From a phage, in sequence record PZ179880.1: a stretch of DNA of 64,000 nt. The stretch is one strand, 5' to 3'. The notes beneath the pieces are model-generated. The model was not told the DNA's origin. It searched no databases and was given only the letters and a program-made list of their open reading frames with translations. A program made the position numbers and the translations under genes. Positions 54,446 to 64,000 of the stretch are shown piece by piece; the stretch's first letter is position 1; every line of letters begins with the position of its first letter.

Positions 54446-57400
54446 ATGGCCGAGATTAAAAGAAAGTTCAGAGCAGAAGACGGTCTGGACGCAGGTGGCG
54501 ATAAAATAATCAATGTAGCTTTAGCTGATCGTACCGTAGGAACTGACGGTGTTAACGTTGATTACTTAATTCAAGAAAACACAGTTCAACAATATGATCC
54601 AACTCGTGGATATTTAAAAGATTTTGTAATCATTTATAATAATCGTTTTTGGGCAGCAACGGATAATATTCCAAAACCTGCTGGAAGTTTTAATAGAATT
54701 CGTTGGAAAGCATTACGTACTGATGCCGTATATACAACCGTATCATCTGGACCATATCAATTAAAATCCGGAGAAGCAATTTCAGTAGATACATCAGTTG
54801 GTAATGACATTGAGTTTAATTTACCGCCTTCTCCGCTTGATGGAGAAACCGTAATAATTCAAGATATTGGTGGAAAACCTGGTATAAATCAGGTTAAAAT
54901 AAATTCTTCAAATCAGAGTATTGTTAATTTTAGAGGTGAACAAGTACGTTCAGTTCTAATGACTCATCCAAAGTCACAGATGATATTCATTTTTAATAAT
55001 CGTTTGTGGCAAATGTATGTTGCTGATTATAGCAGAGAAGCTGCGATTGTTACTCCATCGACTGCATATCAAGCACAATCTAATGATTTTATCGTGCGTA
55101 GATTTACTTCCGCTGCGCCGATTAATATTAAACTTCCGAGATTTGCTAATCATGGCGATATTATTAATTTCGTTGATTTAGATAAATTAAATCCACTTTA
55201 TCATACAATTGTCACGACATATGATGAAACAACTTCAGTACAAGAAGTTGGAACTCATTCTATTGAAGGCCGTACATCGATTGACGGTTTCTTGATGTTT
55301 GATGATAATGAAAAATTATGGAGATTGTTTGACGGGGATAGTAAAGCGCGTTTACGCATTATAACAACTAATTCTAATATTCGTCCAAATGAAGAAGTTA
55401 TGGTATTTGGAGCGAATAACGGAACAACCCAAACAATTGAACTTCAGCTTCCAACTGATATTTCCATTGGTGATACTGTTAAAATTTCCATGAATTACAT
55501 GAGAAAAGGACAAACAGTTAAAATCAAAGCTGCTGGTGAAGATAAAATTGCTTCTTCAGTTCAATTGCTGCAATTCCCAAAACGCTCAGAATATCCACCT
55601 GAAGCTGAATGGGTGACTGTCCAAGAATTAGTTTTCAATGGTGAAACTAATTATGTTCCGGTTTTACAACTTGCTTATATAGAAGATTCTGACGGAAAAT
55701 ACTGGGTTGTACAACAAAACGTTCCAACGGTTGAAAGAGTCGATTCTTTAAATAATTCTACTAGAGCAAGATTAGGCGTAATTGCTTTAGCTACACAAGC
55801 TCAAGCAAATGCTGATTTAGAAAATTCTCCGCAAAAAGAATTAGCAATTACACCAGAAACATTAGCTAACCGTACTGCTACAGAAACTCGTAGAGGTATC
55901 GCAAGAATAGCAACTACTGCTCAAGTAAATCAGAACACTACATTCTCTTTTGCTGATGACCTTATCATCACTCCTAAAAAGCTGAATGAAAGAACTGCTA
56001 CAGAAACTCGTAGAGGCGTTGCTGAAATTGCCACGCAACAAGAAACTAATACAGGTACTGATGATACTACAATCATCACTCCTAAAAAGCTTCAAGCTCG
56101 TCAAGGTTCTGAATCATTATCTGGTATTGTAACCTTTGTATCTACTGCAGGAGCTACTCCAGCTTCTAGTCGTGAATTAAATGGTACAAATGTTTATAAT
56201 AAAAACACTAATAATTTAGTTGTTTCGCCTAAAGCTTTGGATCAGTATAAAGCTACTCCAACGCAACAAGGTGCAGTAATTTTAGCAGTTGAAAGTGAAG
56301 TAATTGCTGGACAAAGCCAAGAAGGATGGGCAAATGCGGTTGTAACGCCAGAAACGTTACATAAAAAGACATCAACTGATGCAAGAATTGGTTTAATTGA
56401 AATTGCTACGCAAAGTGAAGTTAATACAGGAACTGATTATACTCGTGCAGTCACTCCTAAAACTTTAAATGACCGTAAAGCAACTGAAAGTTTAAGTGGT
56501 ATAGCTGAAATTGCTACACAAGTTGAATTCGACGCAGGCGTCGACGATACTCGTATCTCTACACCATTAAAAATTAAAACCAGATTTAATAGTACTGATC
56601 GTACTTCTGTTGTTGCTCTATCTGGATTAGTTGAATCAGGAACTCTCTGGGACCATTATACCCTTAATATTCTTGAAGCAAATGAGACACAGCGTGGTAC
56701 ACTTCGTGTGGCTACGCAAGTTGAAGCTGCTGCAGGAACATTGGATAATGTTCTAATAACTCCTAAAAAGCTTTTAGGTACTAAATCTACTGAAGCGCAG
56801 GAAGGCGTTATTAAAGTTGCAACTCGGTCTGAAACTGTAGCTGGAACGTCAGCAAATACTGCTGTATCTCCAAAAAATTTAAAATGGATTGTGCAGAGTG
56901 AACCTACTTGGGCAGCTACTACTGCGATAAGAGGTTTTGTTAAAACCTCATCTGGTTCAATTACGTTCGTTGGTAATGATACAGCTGGTTCTACGCAGGA
57001 CTTAGAACTATATGAGAAAAATAACTATGCAGTATCACCATATGAATTAAACCGCGTATTAGCAAATTATTTGCCGTTAAAAGCAAAAGCTGTAGATAGT
57101 AATTTATTAGATGGTTTAGATTCACTCCAGTTCATTCGTAGGGATATTGCGCAGACGGTTAATGGTTCACTAACCTTAACACAGCAAACGAATCTGAGTG
57201 CCCCTCTTGTATCATCTAGTACTGCTACATTTGGTGGATCAGTTTCAGCAAATAGTACATTAACTATTTCTAATACTGGAACGGCAACTCGTCTGATTTT
57301 TGAGAAAGGACCTCAAACTGGAACAAACCCGGCTCAAACGATGACAGTCAGAGTGTGGGGAAATCAATTTAGTGGGGAGTCAGACACAACACGTTCTACT

Positions 57401-58315
57401 GTATTTGAAGTTAGTGATGAAACTTCTAGTCATTTTTATTCTCAGCGTAATAAAGCTGGTAATATAACATTTAATATCAACGGTACAGTAACACCGATAA
57501 ATGTGAATGCTTCAGGAACATTGAATGCGAATGGCGTTGCAACATTTGGTAATTCAGTCACTGCAACTGGTGAAATTATTTCTCGAAGCGCAAATGCTTT
57601 CCGTGCTATTAATGGAAATTACGGTTTCATTATTCGTAATGACGGGTCAGTAACGAATTTTATGCTTACTGCATCAGGCAATCAAACTGGTGGATTTAAT
57701 GGATTGCGTCCATTGTCCATTAATAATCAATCTGGGCAGGTCACAATTGGTGAAAGCTTGATCATTGCTAAAGGTGCTACTATAAATTCAGGTGGTTTAA
57801 CTGTTAACTCGAGAATTCGTTCTCAAGGTGTTAAAACATCTGATTTATATACCCGCGCTCCGACATCTGATACCGTAGGATTCTGGTCAATCGATATTAA
57901 TGATTCAGCCACTTATAACCAGTTCCCGGGTTATTTTAAAATGGTTGAAAAAACTAATGAAGTTACTGGACTTCCATACTTAGAACGTGGCGAAGAAGTT
58001 AAATCTCCTGGTACATTGACTCAGTTTGGTAACACACTTGATTCACTTTACCAAGATTGGATTACTTATCCAACGACTCCAGAAGCACGTACCACTCGCT
58101 GGACACGTACATGGCAAAAAACTAAAAACTCTTGGTCAAGTTTTGTTCAGGTATTTGACGGAGGTAACCCTCCTCAACCTTCAGATATAGGAGCGATCCC
58201 ATCTGATAATGGAATAATAGGTAATCTTACTATTCGTGATTTCTTACGAATTGGTAATGTTCGCATTATTCCTGACCCAGTGAATAAAACTGTTAAATTT
58301 GAATGGGTTGAATAA
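54446..58315 (+). CDS. 34: Long tail fiber proximal subunit gp34
   Basis: 1289-aa ORF (T4 gp34 length); internal tail-fibre repeat motifs; late promoter upstream. Confidence 0.93.
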   Translation: MAEIKRKFRAEDGLDAGGDKIINVALADRTVGTDGVNVDYLIQENTVQQYDPTRGYLKDFVIIYNNRFWAATDNIPKPAGSFNRIRWKALRTDAVYTTVSSGPYQLKSGEAISVDTSVGNDIEFNLPPSPLDGETVIIQDIGGKPGINQVKINSSNQSIVNFRGEQVRSVLMTHPKSQMIFIFNNRLWQMYVADYSREAAIVTPSTAYQAQSNDFIVRRFTSAAPINIKLPRFANHGDIINFVDLDKLNPLYHTIVTTYDETTSVQEVGTHSIEGRTSIDGFLMFDDNEKLWRLFDGDSKARLRIITTNSNIRPNEEVMVFGANNGTTQTIELQLPTDISIGDTVKISMNYMRKGQTVKIKAAGEDKIASSVQLLQFPKRSEYPPEAEWVTVQELVFNGETNYVPVLQLAYIEDSDGKYWVVQQNVPTVERVDSLNNSTRARLGVIALATQAQANADLENSPQKELAITPETLANRTATETRRGIARIATTAQVNQNTTFSFADDLIITPKKLNERTATETRRGVAEIATQQETNTGTDDTTIITPKKLQARQGSESLSGIVTFVSTAGATPASSRELNGTNVYNKNTNNLVVSPKALDQYKATPTQQGAVILAVESEVIAGQSQEGWANAVVTPETLHKKTSTDARIGLIEIATQSEVNTGTDYTRAVTPKTLNDRKATESLSGIAEIATQVEFDAGVDDTRISTPLKIKTRFNSTDRTSVVALSGLVESGTLWDHYTLNILEANETQRGTLRVATQVEAAAGTLDNVLITPKKLLGTKSTEAQEGVIKVATRSETVAGTSANTAVSPKNLKWIVQSEPTWAATTAIRGFVKTSSGSITFVGNDTAGSTQDLELYEKNNYAVSPYELNRVLANYLPLKAKAVDSNLLDGLDSLQFIRRDIAQTVNGSLTLTQQTNLSAPLVSSSTATFGGSVSANSTLTISNTGTATRLIFEKGPQTGTNPAQTMTVRVWGNQFSGESDTTRSTVFEVSDETSSHFYSQRNKAGNITFNINGTVTPINVNASGTLNANGVATFGNSVTATGEIISRSANAFRAINGNYGFIIRNDGSVTNFMLTASGNQTGGFNGLRPLSINNQSGQVTIGESLIIAKGATINSGGLTVNSRIRSQGVKTSDLYTRAPTSDTVGFWSIDINDSATYNQFPGYFKMVEKTNEVTGLPYLERGEEVKSPGTLTQFGNTLDSLYQDWITYPTTPEARTTRWTRTWQKTKNSWSSFVQVFDGGNPPQPSDIGAIPSDNGIIGNLTIRDFLRIGNVRIIPDPVNKTVKFEWVE
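55840..56890 (+). repeat. Tail-fibre repeat array within gene 34
   Basis: Recurrent ~39-aa units (TPETLANRTATETRRGIARIAT / TPKKLNERTATETRRGVAEIAT / TPKTLNDRKATESLSGIAEIAT ...), with matching DNA strings such as ctgctacagaaactcgtagagg repeated ~117 bp apart; approximate bounds. Confidence 0.75.
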
Positions 58316-58323
58316 GAGGTATT

Positions 58324-59439
58324 ATGGAAAAATTTATGGCAGAGTTTGGACAAGGATATGTCCAAACGCCATTTTTATCGGAAAGCAATTCAGTAAGATA
58401 TAAAATAAGCATAGCGGGCTCTTGCCCGCTTTCTACTGCAGGGCCATATGTTAAATTTCAGGATAATCCCGTTGGAAATCAAACATTTAGTGCAGGTCTT
58501 CATTTAAGAGTTTTTGACCCTTCTACGGGAGCATTAGTTGATAGTAAGTCATATGCTTTTTCTGCTTCAAACAATACAACATCTGCCGCTTTTGTCAGTT
58601 TTATGAATTCTTTGTCAAACAATAGACTTGTTGCTATATTAACTAGCGGAAAGGTTAATTTTCCTCCTGAAGTGGTATCTTGGTTAAGGGGAGCAGGAAC
58701 TTCAGTTTTTCCATCAGATTCAGTATTGTCAAGATTTGACGTATCATATGCTGCTTTTTATACTTCTTCTAAAAGAGCTATTGCATTAGAGCATGTTAAA
58801 CTAAGTAATAGAAAAAGCACAGATGATTATCAAACTATTTTAGATGTTGTATTTGATAGTTTAGAAGACGTCGGAGCTACGGGATTTCCTAAAAGAACAT
58901 ATGAAAGTGTCGAGCAATTTATGTCAGCGGTTGGTGGAACTAACAACGAAATTGCGCGATTGCCAACTTCAGCTGCTATAAGTAAACTATCTGATTATAA
59001 TTTAATTCCTGGTGATGTTCTTTATCTTAAAGCACAGTTATATGCTGATGCTGATTTACTTGATCTTGGAACTACAAATATATCTATCCGTTTTTATAAT
59101 GCATCAAATGGATATATTTCTTCAACACAGGCTGAGTTTACTGGGCAAGCTGGGTCATGGGAATTAAAGGAAGATTATGTAGTTGTTCCTGAAAATGCAG
59201 TCGGATTTACTATATATGCGCAGAGAACTGCTCAAGCTGGTCAAGGCGGAATGAGGAATTTAAGCTTTTCTGAAGTATCAAGAAATGGCGGCATTTCAAA
59301 ACCTGCCGAATTTGGCGTCAACGGTATTCGTGTTAATTATGTCTGTGAATCGGCTTCACCTCCAGATATAATGGTACTTCCTACACAAGCCTCTTCTAAA
59401 ACTGGCAAAGTGTTTGGGCAAGAATTTAGAGAAGTTTAA
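58324..59439 (+). CDS. 35: Long tail fiber hinge (knee) protein gp35
   Basis: 371-aa ORF, T4 gp35 position and near-identical length. Confidence 0.9.
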   Translation: MEKFMAEFGQGYVQTPFLSESNSVRYKISIAGSCPLSTAGPYVKFQDNPVGNQTFSAGLHLRVFDPSTGALVDSKSYAFSASNNTTSAAFVSFMNSLSNNRLVAILTSGKVNFPPEVVSWLRGAGTSVFPSDSVLSRFDVSYAAFYTSSKRAIALEHVKLSNRKSTDDYQTILDVVFDSLEDVGATGFPKRTYESVEQFMSAVGGTNNEIARLPTSAAISKLSDYNLIPGDVLYLKAQLYADADLLDLGTTNISIRFYNASNGYISSTQAEFTGQAGSWELKEDYVVVPENAVGFTIYAQRTAQAGQGGMRNLSFSEVSRNGGISKPAEFGVNGIRVNYVCESASPPDIMVLPTQASSKTGKVFGQEFREV

Positions 59440-59501: not shown

Positions 59502-60152
59502 ATGGCTGATTTAAAAGTAGGTTCAACTGTGGGTGGATCTGTCATTTGGCATCAAGGAAATTTTCCATTGAATTCAGCCGGTGACGATGTACTCTACAAA
59601 TCATTTAAAATATATTCAGAATATAATAAACCACAGGCAGCTGATAACGATTTCGTTTCTAAAGCTAATGGTGGTACTTACACCGGTCCAATTACTATTA
59701 ATTACGGGGTAAATAGTTATCTTCAATTAAGTAATAATGAAACCCCTATCCGAATTCGTTCTGGTGGCGGCACCGGTAATACTCTTGTAATCGGTGGCTC
59801 TTCTGGTGGTATTAGTTTTAGACCTGCAGGTAGTGAAATCACTACTGGACAAATTACTATTACGCCAGAAGGTTTGACAACATTCACTAAAGCTGTAAAG
59901 GCTCCATCTGTAACTGTTACATCTACTCCTTCCGCAGCATCAGATGCTACTCGTAAAGATTATGTTGATGGAGCAATAAATACTGTTACAGCAAATGCAA
60001 ACTCTAGAGTGTTACGATCTGGTGACACCATGACAGGAAATTTAACTGCGCCAAACCTTTTTTCACAGAATCCTGCATCTCAACCTTCACACGTTCCACG
60101 ATTTGACCAAATCGTAATTAAGGATTCTGTTCAAGATTTCGGCTATTATTAA
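59502..60152 (+). CDS. 36: Long tail fiber distal connector gp36
   Basis: 216-aa ORF; late promoter upstream; T4 gp36 position. Confidence 0.9.
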   Translation: MADLKVGSTVGGSVIWHQGNFPLNSAGDDVLYKSFKIYSEYNKPQAADNDFVSKANGGTYTGPITINYGVNSYLQLSNNETPIRIRSGGGTGNTLVIGGSSGGISFRPAGSEITTGQITITPEGLTTFTKAVKAPSVTVTSTPSAASDATRKDYVDGAINTVTANANSRVLRSGDTMTGNLTAPNLFSQNPASQPSHVPRFDQIVIKDSVQDFGYY

Positions 60153-60160
60153 GAGGACTT

Positions 60161-63112
60161 ATGGCTACTTTAAAACAAATACAATTTAAAAGAAGCAAAA
60201 CCGCAGGTCAACTTCCTGCTGCTTCAGTATTAGCCGAAGGTGAATTGGCTATTAATTTAAAAGATAAAACAATTTTCACAAAAGATGACTCAGGCAATGT
60301 TATAGAATTAGGTTTAAAATATGGAGGAACAATTGATGGTTCTTTAACTGTTAATGGAAATATAATTGGAAATTTAACAGGTAACGCTGCAACTGCAACG
60401 AAATTAAAAACAGCACGAAAAATTAATGGTATATCCTTTGATGGGTCAAAAGATATCACGCTAACTCCATCTGACATAAATGTCAATAGCACAACATTTA
60501 TAAAAAATAACGGCGAATTACCTGTTGATGCTAATTTAGATGAGTACGGGCCTGTTGAAGAATATCTTGGAGTTTGGTCGAAAGCAACTTCAACCAACGC
60601 TCAACCAGCAAATAAATTTCCAGAAGAAAATGCTGTAGGTGTGCTAGAAGTATTTGTAGCCGGTCAATTTGCTGGTACTCAGAGATATACAACTAGATAC
60701 GGAAATGTTTATATTCGTTCCTTGACTGCTACATGGAACGGAGTAAATGGTCCGTGGAGTGTGTGGCGAAATATTCAATCCGGTACTCGTCCACTGTCAA
60801 CAACAATTGATCTTAATGATCTAGGAGGCGCTGAACACTTTGGTTTGTGGCGAAATAGTTCAAATTCCATTGCTACCTTTGACAGAAATTTCCCAGAAGA
60901 GGGGTCGTCAGCTAAAGGTCTTTTGGAAGTATATGAAGGGGGAAGCTATTCTCGTACACAAAGATATACAACCATGTTTGGTGTTGTTTATACTCGCTGT
61001 CTTACTGCTGCGTGGGATGCTTCTGCGCCTAAATGGGGACCGTGGCAACAAGTCGGTAATGTCACACCAGCGACTTTTTATGATGGAGATCTGAATGATT
61101 TTAAAACTCCTGGGTTATATAATATTTTAGGCACTGATGCCGTTATTAATTGTCCTACAGGCGAAGGTTTACCAGCCGTTATTGTTGGTTTGCTGGAAGT
61201 TAAACAGCGTGCTTCTGGCGGTGCTATTTTCCAAAAATTTACTACTGCCGGAACAGGTGCAACTACTCGCGATCGTATTTTTGAGCGTGCATATACTGGT
61301 GGTGCGTGGGGTGCATGGAACGAAGTATATACATCTTATTCTCTGCCAATTACTTTGGGTATGGGTGGCATTAAAGCTCAATTAGCGGAGTTAGATTGGC
61401 AAACCTTTGATTTTGTCCCTGGTAGTATGTTTAGCGTTCCTTTGAATAAAATAAAGAACATGCCAGCAAATATGAATTGGGGGACGATTGATGGAAACTT
61501 GGTTATGTTTTCTGTCGGTCCTAGCGAGCATACTGGCACAGGGCGTACTGTTCAGGTTTGGCGTGGTACTGTATCCCAGACAAACTACCGTTATTTTGTC
61601 GTTCGTGTATTCGGTAATTCAGGAAATAGAACTTGCACAGTTCGTCGTGTTGTTCTTGAAGACGGATCACATACTTGGACTGCTCAACAAAACTTTAGAG
61701 GATTGTTGAATATCACTGCTGTTGTTAATCTTGGCGCTAATCAGAAAATTTCACTTGCTCCAGGAGCATATATTCAAGCCCCTGCTAGCGGTTCTGGTTC
61801 TAATACTTACGCAAATCAGAATACTACTATTGCGCCATTATATCAGGCCATTGACGATTCAAATAAAAACCAGTTTGCTCCTATTGTAAAACAGAAAAAC
61901 ACTGTAACAAATATTACTATGGCTTCTGGTATGGATATTGCTAGTTCAGAATATCGTATCATTGCTCAAGGTGATTTATCCGCTACTGGAACTACAGCTA
62001 ATGAATTAGCTACATGGCGTTTCTTGCCGTCTGGCCGATTCATGTCACAAAGCCGAGTTTATGCTGGCGCAGCATTCTTGAACACTGATGGTAACATTGC
62101 TGGTTCAATCTGGAAGAAATACAACAATGCAACCAACTTAGACGCTGCTTTGAATACTCGCGTAGGTAAAAGCGGTGATACGATGACAGGTCGGTTAACA
62201 ATCAATGCACCTAATGATGTTATTGTATTATCAACAACTGCTAGTAATTCTTTGTATATTCGCGGTGATATAGACGGGACTGGTAACTGGTATATTGGTA
62301 GGGGTGGTGGTGATGATAATGGATTAGCGTTCCATAGTTATGCTAATAATGCTGGTGTATACATTACAAACAATGGTGAGATTGCGTTAAACCCGCAAAA
62401 TACCGCAATGGTTAACGTTAACCGTGACCGTGTACGCATTAACGGTTCTGGATGGATTGCTAGACAACCGGGTGATTGGGGCAACCAATGGCGAGTAGAA
62501 GCTCCATTATTCGTTGATCATGGTTATGTTTCACCGGATTGTTATTATCCAATTATTAAAGGAAGAAGTGTAATCACCAATCAAGGATATAGCACCGCTG
62601 TTGACTTTGGTATGCGTCGTATTCCATCACAGTGGGGGCAAGCAATCATTCGTGTCGGATCCACGGAGGCTTCTCCTGATGCTGGACACCCACAAGCTGT
62701 GTTTGAATTCCATCATGATGGATTCTTTTATACACCAGGAAATGGTAGCTTTAGCGATGTGTATATTCGTTCTGACTCCCGTCTCAAGATTAATAAAGAA
62801 GAATTAGAATATGGAGCAGTCGAAAAAGTTTGCCGACTGAAAGTTTATATTTACGATAAAGTTAAGTCTATTAAAGACCGTAGTGTTATTAAACGTGAAG
62901 TTGGTATTATTGCTCAGGACCTTGAAAAGGAATTACCGGAAGCTGTATCTAAGGTTGAAGTTGATGGATCTGATGTTCTGACAATTTCTAACTCTGCTGT
63001 GAATGCTCTTTTAATTAAGGCTATTCAGGAAATGAATGAAGAAATTAAAGAATTGAAAACGCCTCTCTTTACTAAAATTGCTCGCAAAATTAGTAAATAT
63101 TTTAAATTCTAA
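60161..63112 (+). CDS. 37: Long tail fiber distal subunit gp37 with C-terminal intramolecular-chaperone-like domain
   Basis: 983-aa ORF; N-terminus similar to gp36/gp37 joining region; C-terminal ~120 aa resemble the auto-processed chaperone domains of other phage fibres. Confidence 0.9.
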   Translation: MATLKQIQFKRSKTAGQLPAASVLAEGELAINLKDKTIFTKDDSGNVIELGLKYGGTIDGSLTVNGNIIGNLTGNAATATKLKTARKINGISFDGSKDITLTPSDINVNSTTFIKNNGELPVDANLDEYGPVEEYLGVWSKATSTNAQPANKFPEENAVGVLEVFVAGQFAGTQRYTTRYGNVYIRSLTATWNGVNGPWSVWRNIQSGTRPLSTTIDLNDLGGAEHFGLWRNSSNSIATFDRNFPEEGSSAKGLLEVYEGGSYSRTQRYTTMFGVVYTRCLTAAWDASAPKWGPWQQVGNVTPATFYDGDLNDFKTPGLYNILGTDAVINCPTGEGLPAVIVGLLEVKQRASGGAIFQKFTTAGTGATTRDRIFERAYTGGAWGAWNEVYTSYSLPITLGMGGIKAQLAELDWQTFDFVPGSMFSVPLNKIKNMPANMNWGTIDGNLVMFSVGPSEHTGTGRTVQVWRGTVSQTNYRYFVVRVFGNSGNRTCTVRRVVLEDGSHTWTAQQNFRGLLNITAVVNLGANQKISLAPGAYIQAPASGSGSNTYANQNTTIAPLYQAIDDSNKNQFAPIVKQKNTVTNITMASGMDIASSEYRIIAQGDLSATGTTANELATWRFLPSGRFMSQSRVYAGAAFLNTDGNIAGSIWKKYNNATNLDAALNTRVGKSGDTMTGRLTINAPNDVIVLSTTASNSLYIRGDIDGTGNWYIGRGGGDDNGLAFHSYANNAGVYITNNGEIALNPQNTAMVNVNRDRVRINGSGWIARQPGDWGNQWRVEAPLFVDHGYVSPDCYYPIIKGRSVITNQGYSTAVDFGMRRIPSQWGQAIIRVGSTEASPDAGHPQAVFEFHHDGFFYTPGNGSFSDVYIRSDSRLKINKEELEYGAVEKVCRLKVYIYDKVKSIKDRSVIKREVGIIAQDLEKELPEAVSKVEVDGSDVLTISNSAVNALLIKAIQEMNEEIKELKTPLFTKIARKISKYFKF

Positions 63113-63118
63113 CAGCAA

Positions 63119-63134
63119 GGGGGAAATTTCCCCC
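63119..63134 (+). terminator. Hairpin after gene 37
   Basis: GGGGGAAATTTCCCCC palindrome followed by TTTGG, between 37 and 38. Confidence 0.6.
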
Positions 63135-63149
63135 TTTGGAGTATAAATT

Positions 63150-63932
63150 ATGGCAGTAGTTGGAGTTCCTGGCTGGATTGGAAGTTCAGCCGTAAATGAA
63201 ACGGGACAGCGCTGGATGAGTCAAGCGGCTGGTCAATTAAGATTGGGTGTTCCTTGCTGGATGAGTCAATTTGCAGGTCGCTCACGAGAAATTATTCACA
63301 CGCTTGGAGCAGACCATAACTTCAATGGTCAATGGTTCCGAGATAGATGTTTTGAGGCAGGTAGTGCACCTATAGTGTTTAATATCACTGGAGATTTAGT
63401 ATCATATTCTAAAGATGTTCCTTTATTCTTCATGTACGGAGATACACCGAATGAATATGTTCAGTTGAACATACATGGTGTAACGATGTATGGCCGTGGC
63501 GGGAATGGCGGTAGCAATAGTCCTGGCTCAGCTGGGGGTCATTGTATTCAAAATGATATTGGTGGGAGACTAAGAATTAATAATGGCGGAGCTATTGCTG
63601 GCGGCGGTGGCGGTGGCGGCGGCGGGTATTATTCTCCTTTTTCACAAATGAGATTGACCTTTGGCGGTGGCGGCGGTCGTCCGTTTGGCGCACCGGGCGG
63701 ATCTATTGATATGCAATCAGGAGCAACTGCTGGTACTATTTCTTCGCCAGGCGCAGGGTCTGTGAACGGTATCTACAACGGCGGGTCTGGTGGTGAAGTT
63801 GGCTCCGCAGGAGGTAGATGTAATATTCGTGGTCAAGGATATGAATACGATGGCGGAGCTGCTGGTTATGCCGTCATAGGGTCTACACCGACATGGCAAA
63901 ACGTTGGAGCAATATATGGTCCAAGAGTATAA
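63150..63932 (+). CDS. 38: Receptor-recognising adhesin gp38 (T2 type, glycine-rich motifs)
   Basis: 260-aa ORF; poly-Gly motifs ([23 protein letters not shown]) separating variable segments, typical of T2-type gp38 adhesins rather than the 183-aa T4 chaperone. Confidence 0.88.
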
Positions 63933-63962: not shown

Positions 63963-64000
63963 ATGGCAGCACCTAGAATATCATTTTCGCCCTCTGATAT
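63963..64000 (+). CDS. t: Holin T, N-terminal fragment (truncated by window end)
   Basis: Begins MAAPRISFSPSD, the recalled T4 holin T N-terminus; only 12 codons in the window. Confidence 0.7.
   Translation, partial: MAAPRISFSPSD

Follow-up and report, generated by a model that had tools for sequence, protein, structure and literature searches.

The adhesin-capped tip of the long tail fibre is an established feature of T-even phages; work on T2, T6 and Ox2 in the 1980s defined its architecture, processing and receptor logic, and structural confirmation came with S16 in 2018 and PP01 in 2026. Here we describe gene 37, which codes for the distal subunit of the long tail fibre (gp37), and gene 38, which codes for the tail-fibre tip protein (gp38), in a stretch of phage DNA of 64,000 nucleotides (sequence record PZ179880.1), referred to below as the window. 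The source is a Tequatrovirus, and the module formed by the two genes is very probably the T6 subtype of the "T2-type" long-tail-fibre tip of this genus, in which gp37 would be processed by a C-terminal chaperone domain and gp38 would act as the receptor-binding adhesin.

In T2 and T6, the C-terminus of gp37 is cleaved and capped by gp38 (PMC3157838). The (gp37)3-gp38 tip of Salmonella phage S16 (PDB 6F45; Dunne et al. 2018) consists of a trimeric gp37 beta-helix with an autocleaved domain of 113 aa and a monomeric gp38 with three docking tryptophans, a beta-helix and a polyglycine-II sandwich. Autocleavage removes the last 113 residues of S16 gp37 at DLNVS^SDRRIKK, which exposes the docking surface for gp38, and the aligned site in T6-like gp37, DVYIR^SD, has been discussed for the fPS phages (PMC7917993). 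The gp37 tip of S16 has three equivalent pockets, which receive the three tryptophans of gp38 (PMC6851490). Chaperone domains of the same S74 family occur in the K1F endosialidase, the T5 L-shaped fibre, the phi29 and GA-1 neck appendages and MYRF, where the domain is known as ICA. In the endosialidases, catalysis relies on a dyad of the equivalent Ser and Lys, with an Arg stabilising the oxyanion, and these residues are correctly positioned only once the protein has trimerised (PMC3742443). T4 has gp37 and gp38 at the same locus position, with the same gp34-gp36 partners as the window, but according to the literature its gp37 bears its own receptor-binding tip and its gp38 serves as a chaperone and does not become part of the fibre, whereas the window codes for an adhesin-type gp38 and for an S74 domain on gp37.

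Gene 37 (60161..63112, + strand) encodes a precursor of 983 aa, the C-terminus of which is, as judged from its sequence, a Peptidase_S74 intramolecular chaperone domain that retains its catalytic residues. The domain covers aa 871-983 (62771..63109, + strand; SDSRLKINKEELEYGAVEKV...KYFKF, beginning with SDSRLKINK) and forms the extreme C-terminus of the protein, with the matches to Pfam gp37_trimer and to the long-tail-fibre PHROG lying upstream of it. Pfam Peptidase_S74 (PF13884, "chaperone of endosialidase") matched aa 871-929 with 39.7 bits (E=6e-10), the curated Pfam cut-off being 22 bits, and the C-terminal fragment searched alone gave 43.6 bits (E=3.7e-11). PHROG profiles from many unrelated tail fibres match gp37 at this C-terminal piece only. 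An original prediction, made by a model from the letters of the window and without database searches, had pointed to a C-terminal segment resembling the self-cleaving chaperone domains of other phage fibres; the resemblance is borne out by the Pfam match, the invariant Ser, Arg and Lys and the alignment of the boundary with the S16 site, but the segment measures 113 aa rather than the approximately 120 aa given. The interval proposed there for the module, 62740-63932, ends correctly at the gp38 stop codon, but starts out of frame, 31 nt before the domain boundary.

An alignment of six T-even gp37 C-termini showed that S871, D872, R874 and K876 are invariant in gp37 of T6, T2, PP01 and S16, despite an identity of only 28-39% outside the T6 group. 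SDSRLK places a Ser and a Lys five residues apart at the start of the domain, together with the conserved Arg, and this S-D-x-R-x-K start is shared, as are PF13884 and the extreme C-terminal position, with the S74 systems named above. Searched as a single sequence against PDB sequences, the gp37 C-terminus gave only a weak match, to S16 gp37 (E=7e-4). Since this search did not reach MYRF, GA-1 or 8jov, a profile of the six C-termini was used instead, and it matched the MYRF ICA domain 7dc3 (E=1.3e-9), the tail fibre 8jov (E=4.6e-9) and, from the GA-1 neck appendage, the released chaperone domain 3gud (E=0.004). The first residue of the 3gud chain is the Ser that aligns with S871.

The junction DVYIR^SDSRLKI of the window aligns with the S16 autocleavage site, and the piece predicted to be released has 113 residues, as in S16. 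Autocleavage is predicted by analogy to fall between R870 and S871, with S871 and K876, together with R874, as the putative catalytic residues. The pentapeptide DVYIR (aa 866-870; 62756..62770, + strand), which lines up with the five S16 residues preceding the cut, would then be the mature C-terminus and the docking face for gp38. The residues preceding the cut differ from those of S16, and this part is longer in the window; the gp37 C-termini of the two phages are 28% identical. A basic, hydrophobic tail (TPLFTKIARKISKYFKF) also distinguishes the T6-type S74 domain from that of T2, which lacks it. Unlike in the other S74 systems, cleavage in gp37 of the window type is thought also to uncover a docking surface for a separate adhesin.

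Gene 38 (63150..63932, + strand; 260 aa) lies directly downstream of gene 37 with its predicted cleavable chaperone domain. Sequence comparison supports the assignment of gp38 to the adhesin type and not to the T4 chaperone type, as had been anticipated, because the protein matches Pfam GP38 (PF05268; aa 47-260, E=3.1e-71) and Gp38_N (PF21721; aa 1-42, E=1.2e-20), phrog_2056 "tail fiber protein; host specificity" (E=6e-113), the crystal structure of the PP01 gp38 receptor-binding domain (PDB 9V85, chain A; Terasaki et al. 2026; E=1.6e-80) and that of S16 gp38 (6F45, chain D; E=6.5e-49). The N-terminal attachment domain (aa 1-42; 63150..63275, + strand; Pfam Gp38_N) contains W9, W22 and W37, the predicted docking residues. 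In an alignment of nine phage adhesins, T2 and T6 among them, these tryptophans and all glycine motifs are invariant and the segments between the glycine motifs vary. Glycine accounts for 34% of aa 115-260, with nine consecutive residues (G9) at 151-159, five (G5) at 172-176 and ten GG pairs besides; gp38 had been rightly described as a protein of 260 aa in which poly-Gly motifs separate segments that vary between phages. The longest motif, G9 (63600..63626, + strand), is the predicted core polyglycine-II helix and aligns with helix 3 of S16 gp38 (residues 151-GGGGGGGG-158; PMC6851490).

The best match of solved structure is PP01 gp38, to which the beta-helix part (aa 47-114) is 97% identical. 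In the C-terminal half of the protein the glycine columns are constant, and the segments between them drop to 28-41% identity across receptor classes. Many phages in the database share aa 1-142 of gp38 at 70-90% identity, but not the remainder, and the attachment domain of RB32 is 100% identical to that of the window although its specificity domain is different, which illustrates the modular design of gp38. By analogy with 6F45, gp38 would be part of the virion as one copy per gp37 trimer, that is, at a gp37:gp38 stoichiometry of 3:1. The architecture of the S16 tip is predicted for the window by homology; the two gp38 proteins are only 49% identical.

The receptor was predicted from the part of gp38 that differs between phages. 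Overall, gp38 is 98% identical to that of RB14, 97% to those of Paracelsus and KEP10, 95% to WilhelmHis and 93% to T6, and its identity to the other adhesins compared is 68% (PP01), 51% (T2) and 49% (S16). The module had been called "T2-type", which holds in the sense of an adhesin-capped fibre but not in the sense of T2 proper: it is assigned to the T6 (Tsx) subtype because gp38 is only 51% and the gp37 C-terminus only 39% identical to the T2 counterparts. The specificity domain was compared at the non-Gly positions of aa 115-239, where gp38 is 90-95% identical to RB14, Paracelsus, WilhelmHis, T6 and PST, but 41% identical to PP01 (OmpC of O157), 33% to RB32 (OmpA/lipopolysaccharide (LPS)), 32% to T2 (FadL) and 28% to S16 (Salmonella OmpC). 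T6, RB3, RB5, RB6, RB7, RB14 and RB27 depend on Tsx, and nearly all Tsx binders share one set of hypervariable segments (HVS) (Trojet 2011, PMC3157838); WilhelmHis, KarlGJung and Paracelsus were found to be Tsx-dependent in the BASEL study. At 90-95% identity, gp38 of the window carries the T6 set of four HVS sequences. Because its specificity domain is nearly identical to those of typed Tsx binders, the primary receptor in E. coli is likely to be the nucleoside channel Tsx, and its distal loops would be the parts that bind it. An OmpA "type 1" adhesin, of a group said to be phylogenetically near the Tsx binders, was considered and ruled out on the 33% identity to RB32 as against 90-95% to the Tsx binders. 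The expectation that host range maps to the gp38 loops agrees with the concentration of between-receptor variation between the glycine motifs, with Trojet 2011 and with a 2026 preprint in which exchange of gp38 from HVS2 onwards was enough to switch porin specificity.

Five receptor loops were placed by pairwise alignment to the loop definitions of the PP01 crystal structure. On the + strand, these are predicted loop A (aa 121-125, GSNSP; 63510..63524; from PP01 loop A, W119-I124), loop B, which corresponds to HVS2 (aa 163-170, PFSQMRLT; 63636..63659), loop C (aa 184-189, GSIDMQ; 63699..63716), loop D (aa 205-209, VNGIY; 63762..63776) and loop E, which corresponds to HVS4 (aa 225-232, NIRGQGYE; 63822..63845) and includes the polymorphic residue Y231. 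Loops B to E were each placed from the PP01 loop of the same letter. Position 231 aligns with Tyr230 of PP01, the residue cross-linked to OmpC. RB14, RB5, Paracelsus and T6 have Ser at this position; UGKSEcP1/2, L14 and HP3.1 have Tyr.

Taken together, these comparisons suggest the following order of events. Gp37 would be made as the 983-aa precursor, and its 113-aa Peptidase_S74 domain would nucleate trimerisation of the distal, beta-helical part of the fibre. After correct assembly, the chain would cut itself between R870 and S871 through a Ser871/Lys876 dyad assisted by Arg874, leaving a mature chain of 870 aa that ends in DVYIR; trimerisation followed by cleavage at this bond is the sequence of steps expected from the work on S16, T2, T6 and the endosialidases. 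The cut would uncover the flat DVYIR tip of the gp37 trimer, onto which one gp38 monomer would dock by its N-terminal three-helix attachment domain, with W9, W22 and W37 entering three equivalent hydrophobic pockets. The remainder of gp38 would fold into a beta-helix and, by means of its glycine-rich motifs, a polyglycine-II "sandwich", and the five variable loops on its distal face would bind the host outer-membrane receptor.

Some observations weigh against parts of this explanation. For gp37, modelling aa 851-983 as a monomer with AlphaFold2 gave a structure of low confidence (pLDDT 49.7, pTM 0.24), and a Foldseek search of that model against PDB gave nothing at E<0.001, only irrelevant winged-helix and Mad2 matches. 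The alignment behind the model comprised 15 sequences, the homologue search having returned 20 mostly fragmentary proteins, and a monomer may be a poor test of the fold since an S74 domain is expected to work as a trimer; the assignment of a chaperone fold to the gp37 C-terminus accordingly draws on sequence and profile matches. The poor model would suit a degenerate S74-like relic that is retained, or removed by another protease, with gp38 binding elsewhere, as would the fact that cleavage in this phage is deduced from its relatives. Such a relic is highly improbable, in view of the catalytic Ser, Lys and Arg strictly conserved in highly diverged T-even gp37 proteins, the cleavage reported in the literature for S16, T2 and T6, and the approximately 100% identity of the last ~150 aa of gp37 (tip and chaperone domain) among T6-type phages even where the rest of the protein is mosaic, which argues for strong constraint and purifying selection. 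An arrangement as in T4, with the receptor-binding tip at the gp37 C-terminus and gp38 as a folding chaperone outside the virion, could appeal to the first ~61 aa of gp38, the only part that resembles phrog_1121 "tail fiber adhesin". We consider it extremely improbable and rejected it on domain content: the locus contains neither a short gp38 nor a gp37 devoid of the S74 domain, but a 260-aa gp38 with the full GP38 adhesin domain and polyglycine motifs, next to an S74 domain at the end of gp37 that is a hallmark of cleaved, gp38-capped fibres such as that of S16. The close relatives are all annotated, and some have been shown, to have adhesin-capped fibres.

The points that bear on the receptor concern how few changes in gp38 may matter. 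Between the window gp38 and any one of the typed Tsx binders there are 5-8 residue differences (A194, S199, A202, S213, Y231, D234, T246). A single HVS change, Q206L (RB51/RB68), moves gp38 from OmpF to OmpW (2026 preprint), and three changes between T6 and PST gp38 extend host range (PMC3157838). The Yersinia phage fPS-65, whose gp38 is 97% identical, has been reported to use the inner-core heptose of LPS on Yersinia, so that receptor use may depend on the host. On this basis the same architecture could serve a primary receptor that is not, or not only, Tsx, with A202, S213, Y231 and T246 shifting or broadening recognition to a different porin (OmpA, for example) or to LPS. These four residues differ from RB14, Paracelsus and T6 and are common to UGKSEcP1/2 and L14; Y231 lies in predicted loop E opposite the receptor-contact residue Tyr230 in the PP01 alignment, and the nearest gp38 relatives (99.2-99.6% identical) come from phages of Shigella and E. 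fergusonii hosts, none of which was found to be receptor-typed. Against this, all five distal loops are identical to those of the Tsx-typed RB14 and Paracelsus except at position 231, gp38 keeps the T6 states Q166 and M167 in loop B (R and I in PST) and G207 in loop D (Ile in PST), nearly all Tsx binders have this HVS set, and the variant residues circulate freely among T6-type adhesins, recurring in UGKSEcP1/2, L14, HP3.1 and RB5. A primary receptor other than Tsx, or additional to it, is on balance unlikely. It is also quite unlikely, and slightly more so, that the A202/S213/Y231/T246 allele itself shifts or broadens the receptor or host spectrum relative to the classical Tsx adhesins of T6 and RB14; if it did, the target might be a second receptor, or a Tsx loop variant that occurs in Shigella or E. 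fergusonii. The sequence contains nothing at odds with the explanation of the locus as a tip module of the T6 subtype.

Of the described phages, the closest to the window are the T6-like coliphages (T6, RB14, RB3/RB5, Paracelsus (Bas36), WilhelmHis (Bas35) and KEP10; Tsx), whose gp38 proteins are 93-98% identical to that of the window and which share the DVYIR^SDSRLK junction. Gp37 matched phrog_1699 "long tail fiber protein distal subunit" (E=5e-199), and Pfam gp37_trimer was found at aa 690-739. At the amino acid level the protein is 96% identical to its counterparts in Paracelsus and KEP10 and 77% identical to that of T6, and its exact sequence was absent from the public protein collection; by this comparison it is a mosaic variant, at 96% identity, of the Paracelsus/KEP10 gp37. 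The difference from T6 lies in aa ~500-700 (window 61660-62260), where gp37 is 14-42% identical to T6 but shares 86-100% identity with Paracelsus, KEP10 and RB14. All T6-type phages agree at the two ends of the protein, with 96-100% identity over the first 50 aa and over the last ~150 aa. This pattern is consistent with a shaft that is shuffled by recombination while the ends that join gp36 and dock gp38 stay fixed. Within gp37, a ~90-aa domain is also duplicated in tandem, at aa ~124-209 and ~216-302 (window 60530-61066), with a local alignment score of 160 compared with 28 +/- 5 in shuffles (z=25). A possible third, degenerate copy around aa 340-390 (possibly extending to ~61330) is much weaker (z 2-4). 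The duplicated region matches phrog_4618 "tail collar fiber protein" and has no match to a Pfam family.

The module stands at the tail end of the window, where the last 10 kb of the + strand hold the canonical T-even long-tail-fibre cluster gp34-gp35-gp36-gp37-gp38-t, in the same order as in T6, T2, PP01, S16, RB14 and Paracelsus. Upstream of gene 37 are gp34 (54446..58315; 1289 aa), gp35 (58324..59439; 371 aa) and gp36 (59502..60152; 216 aa), all on the + strand. Genes 37 and 38 are separated by a spacer of 37 nt, and gene 38 is followed by the holin gene t, also on the + strand, of which the window contains the start only (63964-64000; MAAPRISFSPSDI...), the gene continuing past the window end. 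The spacer between gp38 and t is 31 nt long and holds a GGAGG Shine-Dalgarno sequence. No record in the phage collection was identical to the window; the best match across its last 25 kb was phage P922 (96.3%), and over g37-g38 the nearest nucleotide matches were KEP10 (95.3%) and the BASEL phage Paracelsus (95.2%).

The g37-g38 spacer contains a perfect, GC-rich RNA hairpin, AGGGGGA-AATT-TCCCCCT (63118..63135, + strand; fold of -16.5 kcal/mol, z=-2.1), just 5' of the gp38 Shine-Dalgarno sequence GGAG (63138-63141). The stem is kept in T6, PST, RB14, T2 and PP01 with differing stem and loop sequences, with a UUCG tetraloop in T2 and PP01, and this persistence suggests a conserved RNA structure. 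The hairpin may stabilise the mRNA or help to set the ratio of gp37 to gp38 expression. It is not a classical terminator since no T-run follows it, and scans of the + strand for sigma-70 promoters and terminators gave nothing convincing besides this hairpin. Reading TATAAATT (63142-63149) as a late promoter was considered and rejected, as the motif falls after the Shine-Dalgarno sequence and before the gp38 ATG.

Two side points concern the annotation of gp38 elsewhere. In T6 (AP018814; L003:8711-8722) and PST (KF208315; L009:3057-3077), gp38 is annotated from upstream starts (LEKI... and MPPLEKI...). The genes as annotated take in the Shine-Dalgarno sequence and, in the case of PST, extend into the conserved hairpin. 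These starts are probably too early, because the MAVVG start of the window and most relatives is conserved with a proper GGAG. The representative of the 90%-identity cluster of gp38 (window 63150-63929; P0022, PJZ22119.1) is labelled "receptor-recognizing protein [Bacillus cereus]" and lies on a contig of 171.5 kb, which is probably a T-even coliphage contaminating a Bacillus assembly and not the site of a Bacillus gene.

Describing the module in this way is the correct annotation of a known system and not a discovery. Eight public contigs carry the exact gp38 sequence, the 90%-identity cluster to which it belongs has 155 members, and a gp38 homologue was found in 811 phage records, in 128 of them at an identity of at least 90%. 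With hundreds of near-identical modules already in the databases, the locus opens no new question, and its practical value is limited to annotation: the sequence alone predicts that this Tequatrovirus would adsorb through its gp38 adhesin to Tsx. The five short loops of gp38, mainly aa 163-170 and 225-232, would be the sites to choose for engineering or to monitor for host-range mutations.

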